IMG/VR virus record: IMGVR_UViG_3300028591_000127
Coordinates: 1-64,000 of that record
From: a virus
Taxonomy: Duplodnaviria > Caudoviricetes
Direction: 5' to 3' (one strand)
Length of the DNA stretch: 64,000 nt
Position 1 is the stretch's first letter. Each line of letters starts with the position of its first letter. The notes under the pieces were generated by a model. It had not been told where the DNA came from. It saw only the letters and a program-made list of their open reading frames with translations, and did no database searches. The translations under genes and the position numbers were made by a program. Positions 1-24,937 of the stretch are shown in pieces.

Positions 1-380
1 TTTTATTTTATTGAATTTATTATTTTATTTAATTATTCAGGGTATATTATTCTATAAGACGAAGTCTCGACCGCGAAGCGGCCTCATCCGTTAAACGAGG
101 GCCTATGTACCGAGTAGGATGAGGAGAGACTGTGTTATTCACCTCGGGCTCAGGTTCTTTCAGCTTTAGATGAAAGGTTCTGTGGCTCCGGGAGGGCGAG
201 GGGAATCACTAGTATATTAATAATTTTCAGTCGTTTCACTCCTTCCATGTCTTTGGTCTCATTACACTTCATTCTTTCCTTCACTCCTTCGTCATTTCAG
301 TCAATCATTCCGTTTCATTCAACAGAAAGCTCTTAGTGGCGAAAAATTTGTGTAACTAAAATGAGCCCGAATCCTTATAT

Positions 381-983
381 TTGATGAAAAGAACAAAGGA
401 ATCCTGTTATTTATGTTTTAATATTGAAGATCCAGAAGAAGAATTGAAATTTCTTTCTATTCTTGAGAAACTTAAAATACCTTATTTTGGTAATCTAGAT
501 GATAGGTTGTGTATAGAATTCGCTGATTATTATATGGCATATTTTTTAGCCAATCATCAGGGAGAAACTGGCCAATTATTTTTATCGAAAATTAGGAAAT
601 ATTCTCAAAATTCAACGCCAGCAAACGAAACAGGTACGGGGGTAATTACAGAATATCATGAAAGGGAAGTTACTAGGTGTGTTTGGCAGGATCCTGAGTC
701 GACAGAACAGGAGGTAGTTGTAAAATCATATGAGCATCTTCCATTAAGCTGTTTCGTTCCTATTATTAATGATAAAGGTTGGTATTCATTCTCAATATCT
801 TCAGTGAGTTCTACTACGATTTCTATTATTAATACTGATTGTATTTGTATTTCTGGTGGTAGTTATTCAAATCTTTGTAACTATTATAGAAGTTTTTCTG
901 ATATTCATAAGTCAGATTTTAATAGCGATAGTGGTTTAATTTTAGAAATCTTAATTATGCGAGGTATCTGTTCCCCTGAGTAA
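381..983 (+). CDS. Hypothetical protein (200 aa), the only sizeable plus-strand gene, directly upstream of the cassette array
   Basis: ORF track; followed by a hairpin and T-run; no motif I recognise. Confidence 0.6.
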   Translation: MMKRTKESCYLCFNIEDPEEELKFLSILEKLKIPYFGNLDDRLCIEFADYYMAYFLANHQGETGQLFLSKIRKYSQNSTPANETGTGVITEYHEREVTRCVWQDPESTEQEVVVKSYEHLPLSCFVPIINDKGWYSFSISSVSSTTISIINTDCICISGGSYSNLCNYYRSFSDIHKSDFNSDSGLILEILIMRGICSPE

Positions 984-1003
984 GGGGGACTTTATTTTTT
1001 TTT
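970..1003 (+). terminator. Intrinsic terminator after ORF 381-983
   Basis: Stem GTTCCCCT(970-977)/AGGGGGAC(983-990), loop GAGTA, then TTTATTTTTTTTT. Confidence 0.7.
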
Positions 1004-1017
1004 CTTGGTATAATAGA

Positions 1018-4000
1018 ACATGTAACAGGTAGTAGCTATCAAATACTTAACTGTTCAGAAGTTAGTAAAATATCTATCTATATTATATATTCTCACGATG
1101 GTTTAATTCATTTTTCTCAAACTGGTCAGCCAACTAAATCTAAACAATACTAACATGTAACAGTAAGTACTTATGGAGATAGAGGGCCTAGTCAAGGGTG
1201 GGCTACAACTCATCCACATAGAGTAGATAATAGAAATGGAATGGTATTAAATAGAGGTGGAGGTGGTTTCCCTAGTAAATCTAACCAATAACTAACATGT
1301 AACAGAAAATACATCTGGAAATAAATGGTCATCCACAGATCAAAGTATAACAAAAGGATTTCTAGTAGTGCTTTCTTATGGAGGACTTACTTCCAGTAAT
1401 TTGACTTTTAAATCTAACCAATACTTATACTACATGTAACAATTAGTATATATAGTCATTGTTCAGGAGAAATGACAAAAAGTCAACCGGTAGAAGTACA
1501 TCAAAGTGAAGGAAAGATTGTATCTCATCAGTCTAGTTGGGATATAGTTAAATCTAACCAATATTTATATATACTACACTACATGTAACAAGTACTAGTT
1601 GGGCTAATGGAGAACCTACCGACCGTAGATCTGCATATCTTATAACTAATTCATATCTAGTTATGCTTGCTCATTCTTATACTCCTAAATCTAACCAATA
1701 CTCGACTAACATGTAACAGGTGACAGATATGCAAGTGTTTTGGAAAACAGTATATATCGTATAATAATGGTTCATCCTAATTCGATGGTAGGAACTTTTT
1801 ATGATCCTGGTAGTTTTGCAAATAAATCTAACCAATATTTATACATACATGTAACAGGTAGTAGCTATTATATATGGGCTAGTGGAGATACAGATAATTT
1901 TGCCAACTTCAGACCAAAAATTTCTATGGGAATAAGTAGTAGTATGACCCTAATGTTTTATCCAACATTACTAAAATCTAACCAACACTTGACTAACATG
2001 TAACAGGAGGTACTAATGTTGGAAGACATAATATAGGTGATTGGTCAAGTATAAGACCTTTTATAGTAAATTTATCTCTTGGTATCGTAAATCCAGGTAT
2101 TAGTACAGTTACTTGGATTAAATCTAACCGATACTTTACTATACTACATGTAACAAGCTATAATCTTCATAGTCATGGTACTACTGAACATGATAAGACA
2201 CGAAATAAATCAGTTCATCTTTTCATTAGTTCTAATCTACCTGCAGGAACATATACAGGAGGAGTAGTAGAATTAATTTATAAATCTGCCCAATACTTGT
2301 TGAGACTTCTATACATACATGTAACAGGAGAAGGAAATTTTGTTTCAGTAGCAGAAAAAAGTAAAACGCTTCTGTATTATATTTGGAATTCAACAGTTGT
2401 AAGTCAGACTGGAGGATCCTGGTGGAGAACTAAATCTGCCCAATACTTTTTACAACATGTAACAGCATTTAGTACTTTCATATGGTCCACACAAGAGTAT
2501 ACAAAGAAAGATGCAGTTAGAGTTTGTCTTGATTCTAGAGGAGTATTTGACAATATCAGTGGTAATTTAGCCTATAAATCTAACCGATACTGACATGTAA
2601 CAACAAAGACACTTATTGGTGATAGTGGTGAGACATCTGGGGTTTATACTATCTATTGTCTGGGTGATAGAGGATATGTAATAATACCAAATAATGGATA
2701 TTCTACTGCAGCGATTAAATCTAACCAATACTTACTAACATGTAACAAGTAGTCAGGAATATTCTAGTTGTGAATCAGCAAAGATAATCCCAATGCAAAG
2801 ACATGGTAATAATGTTTATCCAATGACAAGTTATTCCTATACAGGTTGTTATAAATCTAACCGATACTTAATCTACATACATGTAACAGATTACAATTAT
2901 AAAGTATCTTGTTGTGAAGATTCCGCTATTACTACTTGTAGATTTTTAAGTTTAGGTAGTTATAGTGGAACAGGAGGTATATGTTCTTTAGGTGGTTTTG
3001 GTATAAATCCTATTAAATCTAACCAATACTAACATGTAACAACAGACTGGAGATATAATACATGTGAACACTCAAAGCAATCTAGTTATAATTTTATTTC
3101 GGGTGGACGAATTTATCCAGGCAACGGATATTACAAATCTAACCAATACTTACAACATGTAACAGATAGTATATGGTGTATTGGTGAAAATATTGATGGA
3201 AAACGGGGAGCATATTTTATATCTGGAAGCTTAATAGGTATTTACCATGCTGGTGGGTATAAATCTTACCAATACTTAATCTGCATACATGTAACAGGTT
3301 GGCGAGACTTAGCTCTTCCATGTTGCAATGAATCTAGTAAAAAGATTAATACTATAATTGGTGATAATACAAAAAACATAAGACATGACTGGCCTGGTAA
3401 AATATTAAATTACCAATACATGGACTTACTACATGTAACAGTTTATAACTATGATGGTTATCCTTGGAATGTTTTCTGTTGCTCAGTAGATAAGACAACT
3501 GATAGGTCACATACTTTAGCTATGGGTAATTCACTAAGACCTACAGAAAATCAAGTTAATTTAATTTATTACAGTAATCCTACTGGTCAAAAATCTACCC
3601 AATACTAAAATAATACATGTAACAGGTTATAATCAAGCTAACATTAGATTTAGTGTAGATGAAAATAGTACGGTATATGGTAAGACTGCAGGTCCTTGGA
3701 ATGGTGAGGTAGGAACAAGCGTAGGGAGTATGAGAATATTTAAATCTACCCGATACTTTAAACTAACATGAAATAGGTAGTGTTAATAGAAGATCTTTAA
3801 ATGAGTTAACTAAGGAAAGGTCTAACTTTATTAATGTTTCTAATGGTTATGTTGAAATGAGTGAATATACTGCTTTTAAATCTAACCAATACTTTCCATA
3901 CATGTAACAGATAGTAATAGGTGGCTGTCTGCAGAGCAAAGTGCATCAAGAGGATCTCTAATAGTACTTTCTTCTGGATCATATCTTTCCAGTAGTACTT

Positions 4001-6756
4001 ATAGTAGTACTTCAAAATCTAACCAATACTCATACTACAACATGTAACAGAAGGTATTGGTAGACATAGTAGTTCTTGTGCATCAAAATTATATGATTGG
4101 ACAAAGAGTAATGGTGGTAATCATATTTGGAATGGATTTGCTAATATAGGTAAATCTACCCAATACTCTCTACATGTAACAGGGGGTACTAATGTTGGAA
4201 GACATAATATAGGTGACTGGTCAAGTATAAGACCTTTTACAGTAAATTTATCTCTTGGTATCATAAATCCAAGTGCCTCTAGTGCTGTTAGCTGGACTAA
4301 ATCTAACCAATACTTTTCATACATGTAACAAGTCCAGGTAATAGATGTTCAGCAATAGAGAAAAGTAAAATTTATATCAATTATCTGTGGAATTCCTCAG
4401 TTTGGAATACCTCTGGAGGATCTGCTATGAGACCTGAAAAATCTAATCAATACTAACATGTAACAGATAGTACAAGATCCTCTAATGGAGAATGTAGGTT
4501 CAATGCTTGTTGTACAACTCTTAATAGTATAAATGTTTATGCTTCTTATGCATCTGGAGGACATACATATAAATCTGCCCAATACTTAGTCCCTACATGT
4601 AACAGGTAATAATGGTGTTTCTGGTGAATGTTACCGTACACTAGCTTATAGGACTAATGGTTTTGTATTTTGTGAAAATAACGGACTCAAGGCATATATT
4701 TATAAATCTAACCAATACTGACATGTAACAAACAATTCTGCCACGATAGCTAGTAGTATGGAAACTGGAAGGGGTAATAGTTGGTGTCTATATCAAGGAG
4801 TTAGAAGGGATTTTGTAAGTAAATCTAGCCAATACTGAGATCTCTACATGTAACAGGTACTAGTCAATTTTTTATGGTTTCAAGTAAGGATAATAGTAAG
4901 ACATCATATTCCGTGGTTAATTACTTTGGAAATAGCAATTTTATAGCTTCTGTAAATAAATCTAACCAATACAGGGATCTCTACATGTAACAGATAGACA
5001 ATGGGCTTTTGGAGAACAAGCCAAACCAATGTGTTATTCTATAACATATAATATGATGGTACTTATTCAGCATCCAGGAAATTACAAATCTAACCAATAC
5101 TTACTAACATGTAACAAGCAGTTTCTGTAGAAGTAGTTGTGGAGAGGGTGAGAAAAGAGCTATGCATTGTTTATTCATCAATCTTTATTATAATGATAGG
5201 GGTGATGTATTCACTGCTAGTTATATGAAATCTACCCGATACTGGCAAACATGTAACAGATAGTACTAAGAGATTTAGTCAAGCTGAAGTAAGTAATTTA
5301 TCTGTTTTTTATATTGCTGTTAGTACTGGAATAGTCCATTATCGGGATCCTATCGGTAGTCATCCTTTTTCTAAATCTAACCAATACAGACATGTAACAG
5401 GAGGAAATAGTAATTATTACTTCTCGGGAGCTGGTGAAATAAGTAAAGTATCTCCAGTTAGATTTAAAGCTAATGATCTGTCTATATTCTTTATTGGAGC
5501 AGGAGGATCCTCTAATTCTAAATCTCACCAATACTAACTAACATGTAACAGGTAGTTATAATAGAAGTAGTTGTGGAGAAGGTGAAAAAAGAGCTATGTA
5601 TTGTTTAATTAATAATGGTAGTCAAATAGCCATTGGTTATTATACTACTATTAGTAAATCTAACCAATACTCTCTACATGTAACAGGAGGAAGTAATTAT
5701 CTTTTCATCTGGGGAGCTGGTGAGACGAGTATTGTATCTCCAGTTAGATTTCAGGCTGAATTGTCCATATCATTCACTGGAGGAGGGGAGCCAGTAATTA
5801 TAAATCTAAACAATACTTACACTAACATGTAACAAGTTTTAGAAGTCATGCTAAACAGGTTAATAATGGTAAAATAGATTCGATTGGTAATTCTGCTTCT
5901 ATTAGGGTAGATGGTTTAGCAAATTATAAATCTAACCAATACTACTATAATATACATGTAACAGGTTATAGTCACTCTATGTATTCTAGGTCCTGTATTA
6001 AAGAATATAGTAATTCTCATAGTACACAGGTTTTTCTATATCAAGGAGAAGTTGGTAGTTCTGCACTTGGAGTTGGTTATTCTAAATCTAACCAATACAT
6101 GTAACAGATAGTGGTATGAGTAGAATAGTATTTGCTGCAGCAGGCGATAAATATACTAGTATGCCGCTTCAGTGTAGATCTGAGGGTACTGTTCTTACTG
6201 AATTTGCAGTACATAAGTTTAAATCTAACGAATACTAACATGTAACAGGTAATAGATATAGTCATAGTTCAGGAGAAACTTCAAAAGTTCATCCGGGAGG
6301 AATAGCTATTGGACAAGCAATCGTTTATATTCAGAATGGATGGATAATGAAATCTCACCAATACTAACATGTAACAGTAAGTACAAGAAGATTTAGCTGT
6401 TGTGAAATTTCTAAAATATTAATGTGGTATGTAAATTTAAACAACGGACTTATCTTATTAGGGGCTGGAAATTGTTATAAATCTACCCCATACTTGTTGA
6501 AATTTTTAACATGTAACAGGTAATAACTATGTATGGAGGCATTCTTTGTATGAACTGTCTAAAACTATAATTTATGCATTTTCTTTAGGTAGAGGAGGAT
6601 TTTTTGGTGGTGGAGGTGAGCAAATGAAATCTAACCGATACTTATAACATGTAACAATAGATACTTTGTTTGGTCTTAGTGAAAGTAGTCAGAAACAGAC
6701 CACCTCTCTTTCACTGGTATTAGGAAGAACTAATGTTAATAATAAATCTAACCAAT
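1018..6756 (+). repeat. Array of 41 tandem variable cassettes (alternative C-terminal variable regions for gene 8215-15423)
   Basis: ACATGTAAC starts at 1018,1153,1295,1432,1581,1709,1847,1996,2146,2317,2455,2593,2738,2879,3032,3155,3287,3431,3615,3766(degenerate ACATGAAAT),3900,4040,4172,4321,4456,4595,4721,4846,4983,5107,5249,5390,5541,5676,5825,5954,6097,6238,6367,6509,6647. Each unit ends in an AAATCTAACCAATAC-like motif and translates as HVT-(variable)-KSxxY. Confidence 0.95.
4595..4719 (+). repeat. Cassette 26: exact copy of the variable segment currently in the gene
   Basis: 125/125 identity to the reverse complement of 8259-8383. Confidence 0.97.
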
Positions 6757-6758
6757 GT

Positions 6759-7047
6759 AGGTCTCAACAAGTATCGGTTAGATTTATAACAAGCTTGTCC
6801 AGCCCCAGTTATATTTCCATTCCCCCATAGAATACTCATTTCCACCCGGTTCCTCTCTTTAATGTTCCATACACCATTATTACCTCCTGTTACATGTATG
6901 TATAAGGACCTTAACAAGTATTGGCTAGATTTACTTAAATAATTAGGATTACCATCAGTTGATATCGTCGAACCGGAAAGAGTGCCACGACAAATTACTG
7001 ATACTTCATGAATACTGGTAATTCTACTACCACTTGTTACATGTGCC
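6759..7047 (-). repeat. Two further cassettes in inverted orientation (starts 7044 and 6897)
   Basis: Minus-strand translation AHVTSGSRITS...KSSQYLLRSLYIHVTGGNNGVW...KSNRYLLRP (ORF 6720-7049); same anchors. Confidence 0.9.
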
Positions 7048-7053
7048 ATGAAT

Positions 7054-7098
7054 AAAAAAAAAGAAGTGAAGTCTAGCTTTTACACTAGGCCTCACTTC
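7054..7098 (-). terminator. Intrinsic terminator ending the minus-strand tail operon before the array
   Basis: Stem GAAGTGAAGTCTAG(7063-7076)/CTAGGCCTCACTTC(7085-7098), with a 9-nt U-tract on the minus strand (A-run 7054-7062). Confidence 0.75.
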
Positions 7099-7102
7099 CG
7101 GA

Positions 7103-7345
7103 TCAAGAAATTATGACAGATCCATACATTATATTTTTAAGTTGTCCATCATTTCCCAAAATAAAGTACAGGTATTTGTCTATGGGTTCTTCTGGTATTG
7201 TTTCTGTTACCTCAATGCCCACAACGCTTTTAGAGATTATTCCGAGATTTGATATTTGTTCTATTCCGGTCTCAATATTATTCAGTTTTTCTGCGTCGAT
7301 TGGTGTATTTCCGTCGACCCATTTAGTTTTATTATACTCTATCAT
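7103..7345 (-). CDS. Small phage tail-associated protein (80 aa)
   Basis: YNKTKWVDGNTPIDAEKLNNIETGI resembles a motif common in phage tail/baseplate proteins; ATGA overlap with upstream gene. Confidence 0.6.
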   Translation of the reverse strand: MIEYNKTKWVDGNTPIDAEKLNNIETGIEQISNLGIISKSVVGIEVTETIPEEPIDKYLYFILGNDGQLKNIMYGSVIIS

Positions 7346-7668
7346 TTTTTACCACAGATAACTTTTCCACAAGTACTATTACCACAGATGGCGGGGCAGA
7401 TTTTAGTTACGCTAAGTATTTGAAGATCTTTTAGGTAGAATTCTTTCCCATTAAGTCCCTCCAGTGTTACTACCGTGACTCCCCGTCCTGTTTGTGTTTC
7501 AATTTTTATTTTGACGTCTTTAATAAGGAACACTTCATCGGTTGGCACGCCCCAGGATCCTGTTCCTACAGCTTTAGACGTAATTTTTGCTGTTCCCCCA
7601 ATAAGATTCCCATAGTTCCAGTTACCATAGGGTGAGGTATTAGCTAAAATTTTATTATTCTTCATCAT
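7342..7668 (-). CDS. Hypothetical protein (108 aa) with Cys-rich C-terminus
   Basis: ORF track; overlaps both neighbours in the operon. Confidence 0.6.
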   Translation of the reverse strand: MMKNNKILANTSPYGNWNYGNLIGGTAKITSKAVGTGSWGVPTDEVFLIKDVKIKIETQTGRGVTVVTLEGLNGKEFYLKDLQILSVTKICPAICGNSTCGKVICGKK

Positions 7669-8146
7669 AGAGGTTATCGATCCATTCGTCCAATTTATCT
7701 TTATCGTCCCAGCAATTTTTCAGGCAATCGTCAATAAAGTTCGAGTATTCATTTCTGAACTGGTAATATTCTTCTTGTGTTTCGAACTTATATCTAGTAT
7801 TATCTCCGAGTCTAATTTCCGGCAAGAATTGTTCGTTTTCTTTCACGGCATCATAGTTTCTTTGATAATTGATCTGATTTTCTGTTGATAGCCAGACCGG
7901 GTGTGTTTTCCATGTGAATCCCTCTAGTATATTCTGGTCGCACCTATCATTGAGGTAGTTTTCTAGTCTGGTTTTTATGGTTGTTTTGTCTGGTTTTTGG
8001 CCTTTAAACAGAAACTCAACCCAGGACCACCCTTTATCAGCGTTTTCCAGAACATCATAGGCCAGTACAGTATAGATTTGATTTCCAACCATAAAATGTT
8101 GAATCTTATCTGGTTTCTTTTCTGTGCTATAAATTCTTTCTATCAT
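7655..8146 (-). CDS. Putative tail-fibre assembly/chaperone protein (DUF4376-like); paralog of 16014-16514
   Basis: ILEGFTWKTHPVWLSTENQINY matches ILSGFTWRGKSVWLSAENQRNF; lies directly downstream of the adhesin. Confidence 0.6.
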   Translation of the reverse strand: MIERIYSTEKKPDKIQHFMVGNQIYTVLAYDVLENADKGWSWVEFLFKGQKPDKTTIKTRLENYLNDRCDQNILEGFTWKTHPVWLSTENQINYQRNYDAVKENEQFLPEIRLGDNTRYKFETQEEYYQFRNEYSNFIDDCLKNCWDDKDKLDEWIDNLYDEE

Positions 8147-8214
8147 TTTGTTATGGTTTTAAAGGGGATTAGGGAGAGTTTGTCTATTTCCCTCCCTTTC
8201 CCAGATTAAGTTTA

Positions 8215-11200
8215 CTATAGTTCAGGCCGCCAGTAGAAAGCTGCCACAGGTCTCAACAAGTATTGGTTAGATTTATAAATATATGCCTTGAGTCCGTTAT
8301 TTTCACAAAATACAAAACCATTAGTCCTATAAGCTAGTGTACGGTAACATTCACCAGAAACACCATTATTACCTGTTACATGTGCCCCCCAGCCGACTAC
8401 GGAGGCTGATCCCACCGCTTGAGCCCTCCTTACCAGGATGTGGTAGATAGGCCTAACTGGTTCGGGTAGTGCTTCGAGGGTAGATATCCTCATATTGCCC
8501 ATTTCGTTTTTATTGAAGTAGGTATCATTTCTTGAGGTTCCATTATTGTTGAGCCACCATTGCCTACATATTTCCCCCAGGTCAGGGAGGTACCACTGCC
8601 CCCGCTTGAAGAAGCTTGAGCGATTCGAGCCCGCCCCTGTTGTAGGTTCCCACTGTCTACACTTCATAAATGCTGGATAGAACATAAACTGATAAGCAGC
8701 ATTACCGTTATTAGTTAATTGCGCCGCAGGCCAAGACTGTTGGTATTGCGTAGTATATGTAGTTGGTGTCATATCTTTGAAGTAGTAAGAGGACATATTC
8801 TCTTCCCACAGATCAGTTGTGTCATCATCTGAGGGTCTAATGAAAGGATATTTTTCAGCCCATCTTCCCTGTTCACCTTCACGTCCTGCTGTAGTATCAT
8901 CTTTACTTATCCATTGAACAGCACCAGAATCAGGATTAGTGATTGTGGTTCTAGCTAAGACATATTCAAAGAATTTATAGACTTTATCAGCTACAGTATC
9001 GGTAGCAATTTGTCCTGGATTTCTATATTTTGTCTTAGTGGCGACATCAATAGAGGTTGAGTAAGTCATTGTTCCGTTAGTATTGGAAGCAGCATTTAAC
9101 CAGCCAGCGGTATAAGGATTAGCGTAGGCGACATTATTAGGATTAGGTAGCCAAACTCTATTACCCTCGCCGTCGGTCATTTCCATATTACTAGCTGACA
9201 TAGTCCAGTTAGAACCGCCAATAGTACGTGAGGATCCTGCTAAATTAGAATTAATAACTTCAACGCTACCGCCACCTGCTCTATAGGGTGTAATACCGTT
9301 ATAGATGGCATTATCGAGTGTTGCAGCGGAAGAGCTAATAGTTTCATCAGACAGTCCTAGCCTATACATCGAGTTAACGTAGGTAGCAAAAATAGTATCG
9401 TATCCACTATTATTGCCTGGTCCCCAATAATCAGAGCCGATTGAGTTATAGGCATCAACTCTAACATCATAGATTTCAACACCTTCTCCAGCATTTTGTC
9501 TAGTGGACATAAATACAACACCAGTTAAGATTTTACCTGTACTATACTTATCATCACAGCAACCATCATTCCAAGCAAAGTCCCCTACTTGTGGTGCTCT
9601 CTTAAAGAATCCAATAATGACATCGAGTTTTGTCGTTCTATTCTCGACTGGAGTATTACCAGTAGGATCAGTTCTGACAATGCTGACTCTCAGACAGAAA
9701 CGTCTTTGCTGTTGGTCAGGAGACTCAAGGAAGTTAGGATTATTCAGAACATTAGCAGAATCAAACTCCATTGTTAAGGATTGCTGGTCTGTTATAGTTA
9801 CGAGACCACTAATAGAGGTTGCAGTGTTGGCTCCAGTTACTCCAGACTCAGAATTAATAACTCTCGGTGCATATTCAGAAGAAGAATCCTCAAAATCTTG
9901 GTGAATATAAACACTAGTATCGTCATCCTCCACTGTTAAGAAGCTCCAAGTAATAGCAGGTTTTCCATCAATAATATCGAAGTCATTAAAGTTTTCGGTA
10001 GGTGGAATAATGCTACCTCCTTGATAAATATACTTTGTTACACCACCGACAGTCTTAGTAGTCAGAAGATTACCATAGATAAAGTTAGGAATACTAATTT
10101 CACCTCTAACACCGGGAGACCATCCATTATTACCTCCAGAGTAGATTTGGTGATCAACGTAGAGAGGGTTATTAATATCTGTAATATCTCCATATTTATT
10201 AATCAGTTCAATCTTCTCTGCCCACTTAAGATATCTATAACCTACTGTTGAATTTGCCTCATTATCGTGGAGATAGATTTTGCCACTAAAGGTTGTTCTA
10301 GCTGATAGTGTTGAATCTCCAACTTTAGCGTAGTAGCAGAGAACGTCAGTACTAACTATCTTATTAGTACTACTTCCCCATCTAACATTAATAAGGTTAC
10401 AGTTTTCAAGTGGCGGTACTCCTTCTCTAGTTTTATCTCTATAAATGTTATAAGCAATATTATAGGTACTAAAGACAGCCTCATTCAGGTTTCGTCCGTT
10501 AATAGTTAGGTCTGTTAGGTTTGGATATCCCGAATAGGTTTCAGCTCCAACAGTATAATCGATGGCCTGGAAGGCGAAGCTAGTGATATTAGGTAGATCA
10601 GAGAGACTAAGTGTTGTCAAGGTTCCTGGCAGATATAGTTCAGTCAGAGTATCCGTTCTAGGTAGATTAACTTGGCTTAAGTTAGTTCCTCTTAGGTCTA
10701 GTTTCTGGAGTCTATATTGTTCAGTAAAATTACCTACACCACTAATACTGCTAACTCCACTCAGATCAAGAACTTTTATGAGTTTTGTATTTTCGGTTAT
10801 ATTAATATTGGTAGGTCTAAATACTAAGCCATCACCAGAAGCATCAAACTCAACAAGTCTTTTACCATTGAGAGTAAAGGTGGCATTTGGGTCTGTTATG
10901 AATCTATTGAAGGATCCCAGCTTTCTATAATAGTTAACACCGCAAAGAGCCAGAGTAGTGTCACCGGATACAGTACCAATAACAAATGGTAAGGGATTTT
11001 CTGTTTCACCTACTATCTTAATAGGCATACCTTGTGCATCGACTCTCCAACCTCCAGGTGCAAGTCTTACGTTATCTGTTACCACTGAAGAGCCAAATCC
11101 ACCCGAGGGATAGAGCCATTGATGTGGAACAAGGTTGAGTACTACTTCCAAATTACTGAGACCGCTAGGCATTTGACCAGTTCTAACACTGAGTGATCCT

Positions 11201-14200
11201 GAAGCAGCAGCACCAGAGAATTCTCCATAGGTACAATATGATGAGAGGTAGATAAGTCTTCTCTTCATAAATTCCTTTTCAGCCTGGAGTTGATCACCAA
11301 GAGACTGAGTGATAGGCATAATACCGGGAGGGTCGAAGGTACCCTGTTCAGTGGCAAGTTGAGCTGTTTCGTATCTGATTTTAGCAGTCTCGTTAAAAGC
11401 AATTGCAGGGAAGTATTCCTGAATATTATAGAAGTATTTTTGACAGCAACCACACACAGAGGTTTCAACTCCTCCAGTAGCAAGAGCTGTCATTCCTGCC
11501 AAGATACTAGACATCATACTCTGCAATCTCGAGTTAGCTTTTCTATCGGTTACTTGATTAGCACCAGTTCCAATACCGTAAGCTCTTTCAATGAGATCTT
11601 GGAGAACGTTAAACTGTCCTTCCCAGTGAGTACCAGTGGGATTACCTTGGATATCACGACCCATAATATCTCTCTCTTCAACCCAATATGGTTTACTTTG
11701 CCAACCTACATTATTAGTTCTGATAATAGTATCAAGGTCGTCCTGTGATAGAGTTATCTTACCAGTACCAGGATCAACAACGTAATAGGTATTCTTAGAT
11801 CTATTATCGGTTCCAGCAATCAGCTTAATAAATTCGTGATGGAAGAGAAGGTCATTAAGAACGAAGAAAGATTCAACATTCAATGCCACTCCATACTTAG
11901 CCTGTGAAACGTTACCAGTTTTAAAGTCCTCAATAATGGCACTTATAATCTGATTGTTTGCTGTTTCTACTGAAGAGGATAGTGTGAGATTCCATCTAGT
12001 ATTAACTTTTACTTCTTGCCATTCTCCCCAAACAGGTCTAGTAATATTATAAGTGTTTCCTCCCCAAGTTACAGATGCGGTAGCTGTACCTGTTACGCTA
12101 CGATATGTGGATCTAACCCACTTTCTTTGAGCATAGTTATATCGATATAGATTATACTGTGAACTTGGTGATTCAATATACTCTGAGTCATTTGAGTCAT
12201 TAGTCATCCAATAACAATAGCTGGTATTGATAGGATCGTATTCAGTATTTTGTGAAGGATCCTCTGTCCAAGCTCTCAGATTAGCTATTGTATCTTCCCA
12301 AGGTTTAATAAAGCAGTTATGTTCGTATAACCAGTTCCATGCATTCTTAATGTAACGCTCAGCTGATAAGGTACCAACAGTTTCTTCCGTTTCAAGCTCT
12401 TCCGGATAAGGTAGCTCTTCACCAGACGTATTAACCCAGGTATTACCCGCATCGAAATTAATATTTTTCAGACCATTATAATAGTAACACTCAGCGTCGG
12501 GATTATAAGTAACTTCCTCATTCCAGGGCACTCTCATGTCAGTTAAGGGATTATTATTATCTGCTCCCTCAAACATACCAAAGAGTTTCATAGCCTTATC
12601 ATAACCCCAAGTTGGTTTATCCATCTTACCAGGTCCAAAGGTACAGAGTCCTTGGAATACTGGCTGGGCATCCTCCGGCGTCTGAACAAAGTAGAGGAAA
12701 GGAAGTTCATAAACAGCAACACGGGCCTTAGAATTAGTCTTCATTATCGTATTACCGTCACTACTCGTCAGACAGATACGCCTATATAGATCATTATATA
12801 GGGCGGTAGCACCAGCTTTATGAGACTGCATTGAAGAGGCGTAATTAATCTTACTAACCAATTTCTTAGCTGCAGGGATATCACTGGTCATGGCGTATTT
12901 CTGACCTACTTCCTCACCGTTCAAATTAGTAAATCCTCCAGTTTCACCTTTCCATTGCCACTGATTATTCCACTCGTAATATGTCTTGGCTGTAGTACCC
13001 TGACCCTTCATTGTAAGTTCAGTCAAGGTTCCAGAATGGTCTTTATCTTGAGTATAGGTACCATCAGCATTTTTATTGACAATACTAATCTCGAGATAAC
13101 CTTTTTGGTCCTGTTGTGTTGCTGCAGAGTGATTACTTACATTATAACCATGCCAGAGTAAGCAGTTATATTGTTCTTTAGCAAGTGAATAATTGATATA
13201 ACCATTAGCAGTAATACTATTAGCTACTTTAAAGGCCTGTTTCTGAATTGCTGAAGGTAAGGATGACATATAATCCTGCTCAACATCACGACTACTAAGG
13301 CCTCCATAGCTACCAGTATAAATTCTAATTGAATAAATATCAATATCAGCATCGGGAGCACCAATTCTTATACCACCATGACCACCAGAGCTAATAAACT
13401 CATTTGCAGAACTATTATTAAATTTAAATTCGCGATTAATAACACCATTAATAAAAACTCTACCATAAGGTACTTCACCCGAGTTACCAGCCAGAGATCT
13501 TACATTATGAACAACGTTAAAGGCAATATGTGTTCTAACATCTTCTTGCCAAGCGAAGTTTTGCTGTTTCTCTGAGGTATTGCTAGTAGTCATGAATACA
13601 CCCTCTAGCGGTTTAAGTTGAATACCTTTAGTACAGTTTCCATTAGCATCTTCTTCACAGATTCTGAAAATGGGAGTATCTTCATCTGTTATATTACTAA
13701 CCATGAAATCTACTTCAATAGTTACATCAGAATTACTATCCTCAGCTCCTATATATTGTCCAAAAGGTTCATAGTCAATAGTAACATATCTATTACTTGG
13801 GACTCTCAACACTGTTTGTCCTACGGATCCTGTTACGCTATTAGTATCTTTAATCCAGCCATCAGAAGTCCAGTTAAATCCTTCAAAGTTTGCTGATACT
13901 GGTTGGCCATTAGCAGCATTGATAATTGTAGCTCTATTTTCTGCTGTTTCTGAATTACTTCTAGATTTTGGATTTAAGATAAAGGATGCGTGAGCTGTAG
14001 GGGTAAAGTCTTCTGAGTTCTCTACGACAACAGGTATTCTATTTCCAGTAAAACCTGACAACATATTGGATCCTTCAATATCAGTAGCTCTCAAGTAGGT
14101 CTGTATAGTTCTAAGGACTTTCTCTTCAATCTCAAGAGTATTGTTAAAGGTATATTTCGTAAGAGACTGTGCAGCTGTTTGTTCAAAGGTAAGATACTCA

Positions 14201-15423
14201 GTTGATCCAGTACTATTACCAAAAGCAAATCTCACATATCCCTCATCGTTGCTGGTCGGTCCACAATAAAGGGCATACCTAAAGAAATCGGTAGCTACGT
14301 AATTAGATGCTTGACTGACACAATTTTGAATTAATAATCTAGGAACACCATCATACTGGGACTCATCATTATCATCATAATTTCTCTGAACCATGACCTG
14401 ATTAACAACCCTGGCTGATTCTTTAGAAGGATCACCACTAACAGAAAGCCAAGCAGTAATAGTATGAACGCCATGACTTAATAGGAACTTCTTTTGACTT
14501 TCATTAGAAGGTTCTGTATATGTGTAGATGTATGGTGTCTCTAAGTATGAAGTAGTTCCAAGACCTATTACTGTGATTTCTTTAGTACTTGCAGTGCTTC
14601 CAGGACTGTCCATATCACCAGTAGAAGTTGATATTTGAATATGAAGATCCTTACCAACTGCACCCCCAATATAATAGCGGAAGAGATATGTATTATGGTC
14701 AGTGTCTGATCCGTCCTTCATACCAATAATAGGTCTTTCCCAATTGCCAGCAAACTCAATACTAAGTGTTGTTTTTGTTATACTACTAATCTGAACGGCA
14801 TTAGAGCTTGCTTGCATATCATCATTATTGACATTGACAATAAATCTCATCTGATATCCTACAACATCAGCGTCAACGTATTCAGAAATGTCATAGGTTT
14901 CATAATCATTCTCATCATCAATACTGGCTGAATTTATATTTTTTGACGCCTTTAGAACCCAAGATGAATTACTAGAAGTACGACCATAAATATTAAGGGT
15001 GCCAGTAACAGGGTTATCTACTGGTGCTGCATCAGCCTCCTTAAGTGTTGATGTAAATCTAATACTTGCTGATACCATTCCATCAATACTAACAATAGTA
15101 CTCGGGGTATCAACAAGCTCCAATTTAAGAGTAGTAACGGTAGCACCTCCACCGCCACCACCAGCAGCAGGGAGTACGATGTTTTCTAAGATTAAATTTG
15201 TCTTAGTAGGATCTCCCACCCACTCTTCATAATCCTCTATTGATGCGAAGGCCAGCATGTGATATTGGTCGTCGCTCCCCTTTTCTGGTTGTGAAAAGTA
15301 TCCAATTTTATTATCCTTATGATCTTTTAGGTACCTCTTTATAAACTCTTCTACACTAGTTCCGGCATAGTTTTCCCAAGAGGTTTCAAAATCAGGGATT
15401 AAAGTATTTATAATATCTGCCAT
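8215..15423 (-). CDS. Large putative adhesin/tail-fibre protein (2402 aa) with LamG-like and LRR-like segments and a C-terminal CLec-fold domain; expression locus of the cassette array
   Basis: Paralog of the DGR target (KINYASSMQSHK, GTDNRSKNTYY); C-terminal WYLPDLGE...HVT...KSNQYLLRPVAAF. Confidence 0.85.
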   Translation of the reverse strand: MADIINTLIPDFETSWENYAGTSVEEFIKRYLKDHKDNKIGYFSQPEKGSDDQYHMLAFASIEDYEEWVGDPTKTNLILENIVLPAAGGGGGGATVTTLKLELVDTPSTIVSIDGMVSASIRFTSTLKEADAAPVDNPVTGTLNIYGRTSSNSSWVLKASKNINSASIDDENDYETYDISEYVDADVVGYQMRFIVNVNNDDMQASSNAVQISSITKTTLSIEFAGNWERPIIGMKDGSDTDHNTYLFRYYIGGAVGKDLHIQISTSTGDMDSPGSTASTKEITVIGLGTTSYLETPYIYTYTEPSNESQKKFLLSHGVHTITAWLSVSGDPSKESARVVNQVMVQRNYDDNDESQYDGVPRLLIQNCVSQASNYVATDFFRYALYCGPTSNDEGYVRFAFGNSTGSTEYLTFEQTAAQSLTKYTFNNTLEIEEKVLRTIQTYLRATDIEGSNMLSGFTGNRIPVVVENSEDFTPTAHASFILNPKSRSNSETAENRATIINAANGQPVSANFEGFNWTSDGWIKDTNSVTGSVGQTVLRVPSNRYVTIDYEPFGQYIGAEDSNSDVTIEVDFMVSNITDEDTPIFRICEEDANGNCTKGIQLKPLEGVFMTTSNTSEKQQNFAWQEDVRTHIAFNVVHNVRSLAGNSGEVPYGRVFINGVINREFKFNNSSANEFISSGGHGGIRIGAPDADIDIYSIRIYTGSYGGLSSRDVEQDYMSSLPSAIQKQAFKVANSITANGYINYSLAKEQYNCLLWHGYNVSNHSAATQQDQKGYLEISIVNKNADGTYTQDKDHSGTLTELTMKGQGTTAKTYYEWNNQWQWKGETGGFTNLNGEEVGQKYAMTSDIPAAKKLVSKINYASSMQSHKAGATALYNDLYRRICLTSSDGNTIMKTNSKARVAVYELPFLYFVQTPEDAQPVFQGLCTFGPGKMDKPTWGYDKAMKLFGMFEGADNNNPLTDMRVPWNEEVTYNPDAECYYYNGLKNINFDAGNTWVNTSGEELPYPEELETEETVGTLSAERYIKNAWNWLYEHNCFIKPWEDTIANLRAWTEDPSQNTEYDPINTSYCYWMTNDSNDSEYIESPSSQYNLYRYNYAQRKWVRSTYRSVTGTATASVTWGGNTYNITRPVWGEWQEVKVNTRWNLTLSSSVETANNQIISAIIEDFKTGNVSQAKYGVALNVESFFVLNDLLFHHEFIKLIAGTDNRSKNTYYVVDPGTGKITLSQDDLDTIIRTNNVGWQSKPYWVEERDIMGRDIQGNPTGTHWEGQFNVLQDLIERAYGIGTGANQVTDRKANSRLQSMMSSILAGMTALATGGVETSVCGCCQKYFYNIQEYFPAIAFNETAKIRYETAQLATEQGTFDPPGIMPITQSLGDQLQAEKEFMKRRLIYLSSYCTYGEFSGAAASGSLSVRTGQMPSGLSNLEVVLNLVPHQWLYPSGGFGSSVVTDNVRLAPGGWRVDAQGMPIKIVGETENPLPFVIGTVSGDTTLALCGVNYYRKLGSFNRFITDPNATFTLNGKRLVEFDASGDGLVFRPTNINITENTKLIKVLDLSGVSSISGVGNFTEQYRLQKLDLRGTNLSQVNLPRTDTLTELYLPGTLTTLSLSDLPNITSFAFQAIDYTVGAETYSGYPNLTDLTINGRNLNEAVFSTYNIAYNIYRDKTREGVPPLENCNLINVRWGSSTNKIVSTDVLCYYAKVGDSTLSARTTFSGKIYLHDNEANSTVGYRYLKWAEKIELINKYGDITDINNPLYVDHQIYSGGNNGWSPGVRGEISIPNFIYGNLLTTKTVGGVTKYIYQGGSIIPPTENFNDFDIIDGKPAITWSFLTVEDDDTSVYIHQDFEDSSSEYAPRVINSESGVTGANTATSISGLVTITDQQSLTMEFDSANVLNNPNFLESPDQQQRRFCLRVSIVRTDPTGNTPVENRTTKLDVIIGFFKRAPQVGDFAWNDGCCDDKYSTGKILTGVVFMSTRQNAGEGVEIYDVRVDAYNSIGSDYWGPGNNSGYDTIFATYVNSMYRLGLSDETISSSAATLDNAIYNGITPYRAGGGSVEVINSNLAGSSRTIGGSNWTMSASNMEMTDGEGNRVWLPNPNNVAYANPYTAGWLNAASNTNGTMTYSTSIDVATKTKYRNPGQIATDTVADKVYKFFEYVLARTTITNPDSGAVQWISKDDTTAGREGEQGRWAEKYPFIRPSDDDTTDLWEENMSSYYFKDMTPTTYTTQYQQSWPAAQLTNNGNAAYQFMFYPAFMKCRQWEPTTGAGSNRSSFFKRGQWYLPDLGEICRQWWLNNNGTSRNDTYFNKNEMGNMRISTLEALPEPVRPIYHILVRRAQAVGSASVVGWGAHVTGNNGVSGECYRTLAYRTNGFVFCENNGLKAYIYKSNQYLLRPVAAFYWRPEL
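8259..8383 (-). other. Exchangeable variable region (expression site) within the adhesin gene
   Basis: Bounded by the same two anchors as the array units; identical to cassette 26. Confidence 0.9.
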
Positions 15424-16013: not shown

Positions 16014-16514
16014 TTATAATTCTAAACTATCTACCCACTTGGTTGCTGCATCTTTATTCCGCCAGCCTTCATTGAGTGTTTGATTAATAAATTCTACTCC
16101 TTGCAGATAAAATTCAGTAAGATCTTCTACGGTAGTGAATTCATGATAGATCGGCAATTTATGTTCATCCTCACCAATCTTAAAGGTTATTGGCAGAGAA
16201 TCACCATTAGTAATCATCGCCGCTCTTTGCCCTTCTGAAAAATTACGTTGATTCTCAGCTGACAACCATACACTTTTCCCTCGCCATGTAAAACCTGATA
16301 GGATCTTCTTATCAGTCTGAGAGTCGATATCAACTAGGAGCGCATTAAGAATATCATCTTTTGTTACAGACCCACTTGTCTCTATAGTAACACTAATAGC
16401 ACTCCAAGTTCCGTCTGGATTCTCTTTAGCATCATAGTTGATAGTAGTATATACTGTTCCTGGACCAAAAGATTTTATTATGGTGTCCGGTTTCTCTGAA
16501 AATGTTTCCATCAT
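16014..16514 (-). CDS. Putative tail-fibre assembly/chaperone protein (DUF4376-like); paralog of 7655-8146
   Basis: Shared GFTW..VWLS.ENQ.N motif. Confidence 0.6.
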   Translation of the reverse strand: MMETFSEKPDTIIKSFGPGTVYTTINYDAKENPDGTWSAISVTIETSGSVTKDDILNALLVDIDSQTDKKILSGFTWRGKSVWLSAENQRNFSEGQRAAMITNGDSLPITFKIGEDEHKLPIYHEFTTVEDLTEFYLQGVEFINQTLNEGWRNKDAATKWVDSLEL

Positions 16515-17926
16515 AATTTTAATTTATATTTCTTTTTTAATTTTACTATCTCATATGGCCCGACAATGTACATTTTCTCCCAGAAGCCCATTCCCATCTT
16601 GTCAATAGCTTTTCGTCGTTTTCGATAAGTTCTTCTTCTCCGACAGAATCCAAGATATGAGTTCATAACGCACTCTACATACCGGCAGTCTGCTGGGGTC
16701 ATATCTCCCTCTTTCATCAACTTATCAATGTCTTGAAATCTTTTTCTCATGTGTCGAATAGTTCTATTACTAAGATATAGTCTTCCGGGTTTAATATACG
16801 TTCCAACAAACAATACTCCGTGAGATACTGGTTGAAAATATCTCTTTTCTTTATGCATTGTCAGCCCTAGTTTATCTTTTAAGAAATTTTCTATTTTAAA
16901 AATAGATTCTTTTAGAAACTTTAAATCATCACTTACCAGAATAAAGTCATCAACAAATTGTGCTACACAATAATTTTTACCACGAAATAGCCAATGTACA
17001 TAGCTGATGAAGTGAGACATGAGAAAGTTAGCAAATAACTGAGTAGTAAGGTTGCCAATAGGAAGTCCTGTTTCCATAGTAAATAGTGATTTACGAGGAT
17101 TTAACTCATTCCACCATTCTGGAGGTGAGTTTATAATACAGTCTTTTTCTGGGTGATGCATTACAACCTCACGAACTAAGTATAGTAAGAGATTCTTATA
17201 TTCACCGTTATACTTCCGCTTTATAAATCGCTCCAGTAGGCACCAGAGAAGATCTTTATTGATGGACATAAAAAATCCCTCTAAGTCCCCTCTAAACACC
17301 CATGCTGGACGGCGATAATTGTTGGAAATACTTCGCATACCTTCTGCTACGTGTGTTACGGCTTTGTCTGTCCCAAACCCTTTGCGACAATTAAAAGACA
17401 CATTACCTTGTGATTCAAATCGTTTTTCAAACAATGGAGTTAGTCGAAGGGCTATCCAATGGTGTACGATTCGGTCTCGGAAAGAAGCTGCAAAAACTTC
17501 TCGCAGTTTTGGGTATTTAACTAGGAAGCAGGTAGATGTTCCAGGCTTATAAGTACCTTCCCACATTTCATTTGCTAAAACTGGTATATCTACGTTCGCT
17601 TTAGTCATATATTCAACAGCTTGTGCAGAGCGCATCTTTCCACGAAGACAGTCATGGTATGCTTCCCATACAGAATTAATAAAAGATTGTGGCACGGGAT
17701 AATCGGTAAACGCTGAAACAGCCCAAACAACGTTCGAGTTGTACTTATTGTTGTTGTTGTTCACGGTACCATTCTGGAAGTTGACGTTCCATGCGTTCGT
17801 AGCATTGTTCTCGGAACACGACCAGAAGTTACTGTTTCTATGCGACTCTGCAACATAGTAGCTGCCACACTTTTCTTGTGAAGCAGCGAGTCGCCCGTTT
17901 AGCGGATTATATGACACTCTAATCAT
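16511..17926 (-). CDS. DGR reverse transcriptase (ORF includes the TR at its 5' end; alternative GTG start near 17695)
   Basis: REVFAASFRDRIVHH, CRKGFGT, GDLEGFFMSI, GLPIGNLTTQLFAN, FVDD; adjacent TR and Avd. Confidence 0.95.
   Translation of the reverse strand: MIRVSYNPLNGRLAASQEKCGSYYVAESHRNSNFWSCSENNATNAWNVNFQNGTVNNNNNKYNSNVVWAVSAFTDYPVPQSFINSVWEAYHDCLRGKMRSAQAVEYMTKANVDIPVLANEMWEGTYKPGTSTCFLVKYPKLREVFAASFRDRIVHHWIALRLTPLFEKRFESQGNVSFNCRKGFGTDKAVTHVAEGMRSISNNYRRPAWVFRGDLEGFFMSINKDLLWCLLERFIKRKYNGEYKNLLLYLVREVVMHHPEKDCIINSPPEWWNELNPRKSLFTMETGLPIGNLTTQLFANFLMSHFISYVHWLFRGKNYCVAQFVDDFILVSDDLKFLKESIFKIENFLKDKLGLTMHKEKRYFQPVSHGVLFVGTYIKPGRLYLSNRTIRHMRKRFQDIDKLMKEGDMTPADCRYVECVMNSYLGFCRRRRTYRKRRKAIDKMGMGFWEKMYIVGPYEIVKLKKKYKLKL
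17706..17836 (-). ncRNA. DGR template repeat (TR)
   Basis: 131 bp aligning without gaps to 18542-18672 with 15 mismatches, 14 at TR adenines (coding strand); AAC-rich. Confidence 0.95.
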
Positions 17927-18360
17927 AACAGACTATAATTACCCTGGCCATTGTTATAATCGCGCAACGCTATTGCTTGTGCAACGATTCCACGTGCCAC
18001 TTTCTTTATTTTATCTTCTACTGGTTTTCCTATTAGTCCTTTACGGAATAATATGTGTATATCGTCTTGGACATCCTCAACGAAGATCCGCACCATGTTG
18101 AGATATTCAACTCTCTGACTGGGGTCATATACAGAGTGGGATAGTCCAATACATTTTTTAGCCTCGCTTACTGTCAAAAGAATACTATCTATGAATTTTG
18201 TTAGTTTACGAGGCACTAAGTCATATAAATTAACAATATTATATTTTAATTCAATCGCATCTCGATAGATAGACATTTGTCGTAAAGTGCGATGATTTCG
18301 CTTTTTTGAATTGCTAGCCTCTACAATTTCTTGAGGAATTATTACGCCTTTCTGTTCCAT
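17923..18360 (-). CDS. avd: DGR accessory variability determinant (Avd-like four-helix protein)
   Basis: 145-aa basic, helical-looking protein located between target gene and TR/RT. Confidence 0.75.
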   Translation of the reverse strand: MEQKGVIIPQEIVEASNSKKRNHRTLRQMSIYRDAIELKYNIVNLYDLVPRKLTKFIDSILLTVSEAKKCIGLSHSVYDPSQRVEYLNMVRIFVEDVQDDIHILFRKGLIGKPVEDKIKKVARGIVAQAIALRDYNNGQGNYSLL

Positions 18361-18482
18361 AGTGCTTCAAGAATTCCATTTTGTTCAGAAATAATTACTT
18401 TATTAGATGGTGTCCCGTAGGATTCACTTCTTATTTTCTTTTTGTTAATATCTACTGACATCAAATTAATAGTTTTTAAAGC

Positions 18483-18509
18483 GGACGACGGCTAACAAAG
18501 CCGCCATCC
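18483..18509 (-). promoter_or_regulatory. Hairpin downstream of the VR (candidate DGR target-recognition stem-loop)
   Basis: GGACGACGGCT-AACAA-AGCCGCCATCC imperfect inverted repeat about 14 nt past the stop codon. Confidence 0.5.
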
Positions 18510-18522
18510 ACAAAGCAAAAAG

Positions 18523-24801: not shown

Positions 24802-24832
24802 ATTTGTTATCTTTATATCATTTTTATTATCT

Positions 24833-24937
24833 TTACCACGGCTCGCTGCGGAACCAGCCATCTGAGCGGAACCAAGCAGCAATATATCCCTCGATAGCCA
24901 TAGCCATCATCATTATTCTACGGCGAAAGCTGCTCAT
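24833..24937 (-). CDS. Unlisted 34-aa protein MSSFRRRIMMMAMAIEGYIAAWFRSDGWFRSEPW
   Basis: Translated by hand; ATGA overlap with the stop of 24934-26328; same position and Trp-rich end as 15437-15631. Confidence 0.6.
   Translation of the reverse strand: MSSFRRRIMMMAMAIEGYIAAWFRSDGWFRSEPW

Follow-up and report, generated by a model that had tools for sequence, protein, structure and literature searches.

What is the function of several dozen short, open-frame segments lying beside a single large adhesin gene of a tailed phage, and in the opposite orientation to it? We addressed this question in IMG/VR record IMGVR_UViG_3300028591_000127 (Duplodnaviria; Caudoviricetes), a 109-kb record whose positions 1 to 64,000 are referred to below as the window. 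We consider it likely that the segments form a silent donor library for the tip of the neighbouring protein, adhesin 1, and that the library is used by anchor-bounded gene conversion or template switching. The features concerned are listed here by position, strand and identity; nt, nucleotides; aa, amino acids; ORF, open reading frame.

970–1000, + strand: terminator-like hairpin, between an orphan ORF (381–983) and the array.
1018–6758, + strand: candidate silent cassette array of 41 head-to-tail units, 40 of the 41 in frame; the first CAT is at 1019 and the last anchor ends at 6758.
4595–4719, + strand: unit 26 of the array, the same sequence as in the expressed gene.
5677–5816, + strand: unit 34, the sole frameshifted cassette (a 1-nt deletion before the 3′ anchor, from alignment with its paralog, unit 32).
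6771–7043, − strand: units 42 and 43 (6771–6896 and 6918–7043), in the orientation of the adhesin gene, inside ORF 6720–7049 and abutting unit 41 tail to tail.
8215–15423, − strand: adhesin 1 (P0001), 2,402 aa, with a predicted C-terminal Lcl_C / C-type-lectin-like domain (from homology to adhesin 2 and family alignments).
8259–8383, − strand: expression-site cassette near the adhesin 1 C terminus, followed by LLRPVAAFYWRPEL and the stop codon.

Anchors were located by fuzzy search and every unit was then translated, the interior of a unit being defined as the sequence between a 9-nt 5′ and a 15-nt 3′ anchor. This yielded 43 units, each running from CATGTAACA to AAATCTAACCAATAC, with 41 on the + strand and two on the − strand. 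A + strand unit is built of ACATGTAACA, a variable interior of 87–150 nt, AAATCTAACCAATAC and a linker of 0–21 nt. A 44th copy lies on the − strand (8260–8382) within the last 55 codons of the adhesin 1 ORF, and neither anchor recurs elsewhere in the 109-kb record. Hence there is one copy in a gene (8259–8383), whereas 43 cassettes have no gene body.

The cassettes are open in one frame only. Read in the frame in which the 5′ anchor encodes HVT (CAT GTA ACA) and the 3′ anchor KSNQY (AAA TCT AAC CAA TAC), all 43 interiors are free of stops over 1,545 codons. The other two forward frames (1 and 2) contain 97 and 243 stops and the three reverse frames 67–122. Base composition predicts about 126 stops (probability of none, ~6e-58), and after 2,000 shuffles of each interior a mean of 2.0 of the 43 units, and at most 9, were stop-free. 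Unit lengths range from 111 to 174 nt and 42 of 43 are divisible by 3; unit 34 has lost one G from a G run relative to unit 32. An original prediction, made from the letters of the window, had held that 42 of the 43 units are open and in frame. Translation of every unit, with its single frameshift, and comparison with the shuffled controls both uphold it.

Codon usage identifies the same frame. Against a reference of 23,885 codons from the phage's long ORFs, 42 of 43 units score better in frame 0 than in any of the other five frames, and T and C account for 53% and 6.5%, respectively, of third positions in this frame. Pairwise DNA identity among interiors is 0.58, compared with 0.57 for shuffled sequence, and only five pairs are clearly similar, so that the very low mutual identity and variable length described earlier are confirmed. 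The encoded peptides nonetheless share a conserved acidic column about 11–16 residues after HVT in the 43-peptide alignment. Glu is present in residues 9–17 of 33 of the 43 units (12.9 expected; maximum 23 in 2,000 shuffles), and most units without it have Asp in the column. Further along the peptides an Asn-Gly recurs. Because stop-free interiors, in-frame lengths, frame-0 codon usage and the acidic column are all kept despite random-level DNA identity, evolution of the cassettes as protein is supported, in agreement with the selection proposed in the original prediction. Ratios of non-synonymous to synonymous substitution for paralogous cassette pairs (0.3–1.6 on 27–38 codons; 0.5–1.1 in the mosaic pairs) involve too few sites to interpret and are neutral for the case. 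Some cassettes are mosaic: units 8 and 23 differ at 5 positions in the first 100 nt (95% identical) and then diverge with an indel, and similarity between units 30 and 33 is limited to nt 21–66, which fits recombination among cassettes. The stop-free cassettes are the key internal evidence for a functional library over debris and, since all 43 silent units remain open, they also indicate indirectly that each is used with sufficient frequency for selection to act.

The anchors appear to be constrained as DNA. The 10-nt 5′ anchor ACATGTAACA is unchanged in 43–44 of 44 copies and, since it is fixed even at its three synonymous positions, we predict that the anchors act as DNA signals beyond their codon role. 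In the 3′ anchor only nt 7, 8 and 11 vary, namely positions 1 and 2 of the Asn codon and position 2 of the Gln codon, and changes at each of them alter the amino acid. Of 33 substitutions across the 3′ anchors (1130–6935), 25 fall on adenines (binomial p = 0.013), yet only three of the eight adenine positions are touched, all of them non-synonymous. Selection for amino-acid variety accounts for this adenine bias as well as does ancestry from a diversity-generating retroelement (DGR). Individual anchors depart from the pattern in that unit 2 has a terminal TAA in place of TAC, units 7 and 41 end in CAC and TGT, respectively, unit 17 has an in-frame 3-nt deletion inside the 3′ anchor, and the 5′ anchor of unit 20 is CATGAAATA (HEI), with the frame kept.

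The original prediction had also stated that the array is no polyprotein, and this proves correct. In ten of the linkers TAC is followed at once by TAA or TGA, and an in-frame stop lies within 12 linkers in total; in ten more, reading is ended by the out-of-frame ATG-TAA inside the next 5′ anchor. The other 18 linkers are read through, some of them leading in frame into the following cassette. Stops and frame changes divide the array into pieces no longer than 594 nt, the length of its longest open stretch. The frequent linker stops described earlier are thus present, whereas the arbitrary linker length also described holds only in part: 21 of 40 linkers have lengths divisible by 3 (13 expected). 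Each anchor also includes an out-of-frame stop (ATG-TAA within ACATGTAACA and TAA within AAATCTAACC), so that any reading of the array in another frame ends at each unit. Because the array runs opposite to the gene, lies behind the terminator-like hairpin at 970–1000 and is broken by stops, it looks silent. A number of linkers are similar to the 3′ flank of the gene itself (TTGTTGAGACTT... in unit 9, TTGTTGAGACCT in the gene), which suggests that units derived from copies of the expression site. Besides the array, the only sizeable + strand ORF is the orphan at 381–983, which encodes 199–200 Cys-rich residues and ends in the terminator-like hairpin; it has no Pfam, PHROG or Atlas match.

One cassette links the array directly to the gene. 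The expression site (8259–8383) is the reverse complement of unit 26 (4595–4719) at 125 of 125 bases, with the next base on either side differing. All 42 adenines of the expressed cassette are the same as in unit 26, and the donor unit is still in the array. Complete identity marks a very recent event, and the arrangement suggests either copying from a template without reciprocal exchange or a double crossover involving sister genomes.

These observations bear on whether cassettes are instead swapped reciprocally, by paired inversions that a dedicated recombinase catalyses at the anchors in the manner of a shufflon or of Gin/Cin. The inverted orientation of the array relative to the gene would suit such a system, as would the anchors, which are short, invariant and asymmetric and so resemble recombinase sites more than homology arms, and the inverted two-cassette block with gene-type flanks (6771–7043), which together with its tail-to-tail junction resembles inversion products. 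However, reciprocal intramolecular exchange would not leave a donor behind, and cassette 26 is retained. Moreover, a single event at either anchor would remove LLRPVAAF or join the gene to a linker stop, and the 109 kb, an incomplete record, contain no Resolvase or Phage_integrase match. We consider inversion unlikely. Units 42 and 43 bear the gene's own flanks, GGC before the 5′ anchor and TTGTTGAGACCT after the 3′ anchor, and the block they form resembles the remnant of a rearrangement in which the expression site took part. At its junction with the array (6742–6787) the 3′ anchor of unit 41 directly meets the reverse complement of the gene-type 3′ flank and unit 42 anchor, the whole being a near-perfect inverted repeat. 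The gene upstream of units 42 and 43 terminates in a hairpin and T run (7050–7100, read in the sequence).

The age of the unit 26 event also speaks to the possibility that the array is an inactive archive of former variable segments or horizontally captured tips, the identity of unit 26 being one old accident. Switching could not be demonstrated, one unit is frameshifted, some anchors are blemished and no array was present at any related adhesin locus examined, all of which an archive would accommodate. It would not readily accommodate 43 saturated, length-variable, stop-free sequences, 42 of them in frame, between invariant anchors, which require recurrent selection, nor a 125-base identity that marks a very recent event. 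We regard an inactive archive as very improbable.

Which part of adhesin 1 would a silent library alter? The protein ends in HVT-(cassette)-KSNQY-LLRPVAAFYWRPEL. It is 29% identical over 2,059 aa to its paralog adhesin 2 (2,119 aa, 10 kb away), and its central part has >1000 homologs of ~2000 aa in metagenomes. Each of the best 120 of these >1000 homologs has a C terminus of DGR type; nearly all of the C termini read ...WSSSE...AW.V.F..G.......K.....VRAVxAF, and the tips show the hypervariable Asn/Tyr/Ser/Gly-rich pattern typical of DGR targets. The motifs of the family follow the order YYPAxxxCxxYEP, WxLPxxGEL, WSSxE region and, at the C terminus, K(x5)VRxVxAF. The upstream part of the adhesin 1 domain carries the family's FYPA..C..YEP and W.LP..GE motifs. 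Indeed, the PF07603-type motifs occur in order in the adhesin 1 tip as FYPAFMKCRQWEP, WYLPDLGEI and KSNQYLLRPVAAF, with the cassette replacing the WSSxE region and its Glu kept.

In alignments with relatives both short and long, KSNQYLLRPVAAF falls on K.....VRAVxAF and the cassette on the stretch from WSSxE to K. KSNQY-LLRPVAAF aligns with K-x-N-S-x-VVRAVxAF of Lcl_C-type tips, HVT sits at the start of the WSSxE region, the stretch mutated by DGRs in adhesin 2 and homologs, and the conserved Glu of the cassettes aligns with the near-invariant Glu of the WSSxE motif in Lcl_C-type variable regions. By these alignments, the cassette stands where a DGR variable region would be in an Lcl_C-type tip.

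A C-type-lectin-like fold is probable for the tip. Adhesin 1 has no Pfam match at E ≤ 0.1, and the score of adhesin 2 against Lcl_C (PF07603), 23.6 bits, is below the cut-off of 34.9. A profile built with relatives matches 8q4e_A (the C-terminal domain of Legionella Lcl) and 4eps_A (a Bacteroides fimbrial protein). The AlphaFold2 model of the tip, from 46 sequences, has a predicted local distance difference test score (pLDDT) of 64 and a predicted template modelling score of 0.56; a run on 19 sequences (pLDDT 50) was not used. The best Foldseek match of the model is again 8q4e_A, weakly (E 3.7). In VIA-align the 50 listed chains are mostly C-type-lectin-like or of the formylglycine-generating-enzyme type, all at Z < 5, and include the Bd2740 C-terminal domain (Z 4.7) and Lcl_C (Z 4.3) as well as intimin, 4eps, TvpA, Mtd and animal C-type-lectin-like domains. 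In a cluster table, P0001 (the 2,402-aa adhesin) is grouped with unrelated 52–56-aa peptides of membrane-like character from soil metagenomes, probably through a quirk of indexing that may cause searches by cluster to miss it.

The paralogous adhesin is diversified differently. It belongs to a module with the following features (RT, reverse transcriptase; TR, template repeat; VR, variable region), listed with the gene that the two adhesin loci share.

16511–24882, − strand: paralogous module with a canonical DGR (RT and a TR/VR pair).
16511–17926, − strand: RT (RVT_1 match, 1.3e-13).
17706–17836, − strand: TR, 131 nt.
17923–18360, − strand: Avd-sized ORF, with no family match.
18523–24882, − strand: adhesin 2, 2,119 aa, the paralog of adhesin 1.
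18542–18672, − strand: VR of adhesin 2, in a 131-nt TR/VR pair.
7655–8146, − strand: DUF4376 gene downstream of adhesin 1, with a counterpart downstream of adhesin 2 (16014–16514).

TR and VR of adhesin 2 differ at 15 positions, 14 of which are TR adenines, a pattern by which adhesin 2 is judged to be diversified by a canonical, working DGR. An overlap between the TR and the annotated 5′ end of the RT ORF accounts for a weak Lcl_C match on that ORF. No template repeat was found for adhesin 1, since the TR at 17706–17836 matches the VR of adhesin 2 only. Nor does adhesin 1 show adenine-specific changes: its expressed segment has a single further copy, which matches it at every base including the 42 adenines. 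One phage thus appears to vary the same structural element by different means in each of two paralogous adhesins.

The proximity of this DGR raises a retroelement route, in which cassette RNA would be reverse-transcribed and the cDNA would replace the variable segment, with many templates and without mutagenesis. The DGR RT and Avd-sized ORF are 8 kb away, in structural terms the cassette corresponds exactly to a DGR variable region, and 25 of 33 substitutions in the 3′ anchors are at adenines. Against this, 42 of 42 adenines in the transferred 125 nt are unchanged, which excludes a mutagenic RT for the unit 26 transfer, and the RT of this phage is demonstrably mutagenic, since 14 of the 15 changes it has made in its own target fall on adenines; it is also the only RT in the 109 kb. 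Anchor variation is seen at just three of eight adenine positions, all amino-acid-changing, the array is preceded by a terminator-like hairpin, and the length differences and unrelated DNA among cassettes go beyond adenine mutagenesis. Hence, a retroelement route seems to us highly unlikely.

We therefore return to the silent donor library. Each cassette would supply, in full and in frame, another version of the ~40 residues that separate HVT from KSNQY, whereas the scaffold around it, including the essential last strand LLRPVAAF, would be present in the gene alone. A cassette would be expressed once it is copied into the gene through templated, non-reciprocal recombination, by gene conversion, sister-genome double crossover or double template switch, with the end points of the exchange falling within the invariant 10-nt 5′ anchor and 16-nt 3′ anchor. 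Because the cassettes are unrelated at the DNA level, exchange must begin and finish in the anchors and move whole cassettes. Occasional exposure of every cassette to selection in the expression site would keep frames open and fold-critical residues in place while the remainder diverges freely; we propose that such recurrent exposure accounts for the open state of all units. The phage would in this way probably change what it binds by swapping in ready-made loops.

Several observations weigh against this proposal. The single identical pair, unit 26 and the gene, cannot give the direction of transfer. The anchors, at 10 and 16 nt, are below the homology length that general recombination usually needs, and how they could guide precise exchange is a mechanistic question that their shortness raises. 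No Resolvase (PF00239), Phage_integrase (PF00589), RecA or RecT match is present in the 109-kb record; the lack of a recombinase match weighs little because the record is only ~29% complete by CheckV. No relative with these anchors was found in phage GenBank, IMG/VR, JGI metagenomes or GTDB genomes: megablast of positions 1–9000 against phage GenBank records gave no match, and the anchor pattern matched nowhere in IMG/VR, at two single chance sites in JGI metagenomes and at one chance site in GTDB genomes. Protein collections likewise contain no variant adhesin 1 C terminus. The 90% clusters hold no relatives of the tip at near or shorter lengths, an exhaustive representative search gave weak matches only (E at least 2e-7), to the first half of the domain, and tblastn of the tip found no match in IMG/VR. 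Finally, none of 80 related IMG/VR adhesin loci has an array or repeated anchors, so the system is rare in its family. Two homologs with odd, non-DGR tips (P0043 and P0039) were rejected as array carriers, their contigs being occupied by dense ordinary genes.

The data show coding character in the cassettes, their place at the variable region of the domain, and one transfer that kept its donor, was bounded by the anchors and brought no adenine mutagenesis; ongoing and frequent switching, its array-to-gene direction, its enzymology and a changed receptor specificity are inferred. A stronger version of the proposal, in which switching is programmed and frequent and forms a viral counterpart of bacterial antigenic variation, is one that we advance tentatively, as possible but short of probable. 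Dedicated machinery, or a replication template switch between the inverted array and the gene, would then install any of the 43 loops, alongside the DGR. If this were so, one virion would combine a stored repertoire with an open-ended mutational one.

Complete genes among the 80 IMG/VR loci mostly have a VR and one TR ~600 nt downstream. Since most complete related genes are of this kind and none has an array, the library looks like a rare replacement of the DGR in this adhesin family. Metagenomic origin and a region that is hypervariable by nature might suggest an assembly artefact, in which population variants of that region were strung into a false tandem array. Assemblers, however, use word lengths greater than the 10–16 nt of the anchors, linkers differ among units and the array lies in the opposite orientation to the gene. 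An identical gene order is found in three assemblies, a 312-kb ENA contig, the 109-kb IMG/VR record and a 3.2-kb Logan contig, and identical layout in separate assemblies is not expected of an artefact, to which we give almost no credence.

In architecture, the locus is closest by analogy to bacterial silent-cassette systems such as vls and pilS. In vlsE/vls of Borrelia burgdorferi, 17 bp repeats flank the variable segment, and segmental patches move among ~90%-similar cassettes. The vls array is oppositely oriented to its expression site, and the donor sites of Neisseria pilE/pilS and Treponema tprK are similar in kind. With vls, pilS and tprK the phage locus would share one expression site with adjacent promoterless, open-frame cassettes and a donor that stays intact, and with vls also an array opposite to the gene and short flanking repeats (17 bp in vls; 10 and 16 nt here). 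It differs in that the host of the system is a virus and in that the variable part is a receptor-binding tip and not an immune-evasion antigen. Moreover, the phage cassettes are unrelated at the DNA level and would be moved whole, whereas vls moves segmental patches.

DGRs, as in Mtd of Bordetella phage BPP-1 and in adhesin 2, share with adhesin 1 the protein family, the probable lectin-like fold, a surface segment of ~40 residues and the presumed purpose, an altered ligand specificity of a tail adhesin. Adhesin 1 lacks the template repeat and adenine-specific changes, and its repertoire would be stored and finite (43 units, 111–174 nt) rather than one of unlimited substitutions at fixed length. 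The Mu G/Gin, P1 C/Cin and R64 shufflon (Rci) systems also draw alternative adhesin ends from oppositely oriented silent segments through short conserved sites. In these systems the whole C terminus is swapped by reciprocal inversion, a recombinase gene is adjacent and there are 2–7 alternatives, whereas here an internal segment would be replaced, the donor is retained, the alternatives number 43 and no recombinase was found in the 109 kb.

A full-text literature search found no description of a phage silent-cassette library of this kind; the available portions of papers on DGRs of crAss-like phages and on 'tentaclins' describe DGR cassettes only. The gp38 adhesins of T-even phages have hypervariable segments between conserved glycine-rich motifs, and the likeness to adhesin 1 is that short conserved motifs bound variable loops and are thought to guide modular exchange (PMC3157838, in part). 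As described there, exchange occurs between phages over evolutionary time, and the portion of that source available to us describes no intragenomic silent library (PMC3157838).

Known routes to receptor-binding retargeting in phages are DGR mutagenesis, invertible segments and inter-phage exchange, and a stored loop library would add another. With the library beside a DGR, on paralogous adhesins, a finite 'memory' repertoire and open-ended mutagenesis could be compared directly. With such libraries, moreover, the expressed gene would not by itself suffice to tell the host range of giant gut or rumen phages.

The genome itself extends well beyond the record. CheckV estimates completeness of the 109-kb record at 29% and the locus lies inside the 312-kb ENA contig, so most of the genome is unseen. 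The record is bounded by an inverted repeat of ~198 nt at 97% identity (window 1–201; record 108871–109071). The 312-kb contig runs on past window position 1, and because of this the record ends are probably an assembler break at a repeated element, and the phage probably a jumbo phage. Folding of the ~198-nt terminal repeat is no better than that of shuffles (z = −1.1), with no Rfam match; Rfam and tRNA scans of the window gave no matches. A 438-aa ORF (53083–54399, − strand) matches PHROG homing-endonuclease families of the GIY-YIG type (E 3e-21); for most of the window's other large ORFs there is no match in PHROG. Outside the window, at record positions 70300–72400, a 90-nt periodic repeat lies inside a 1,541-aa ORF (68376–73001, − strand) and is probably a 30-residue tandem protein repeat.

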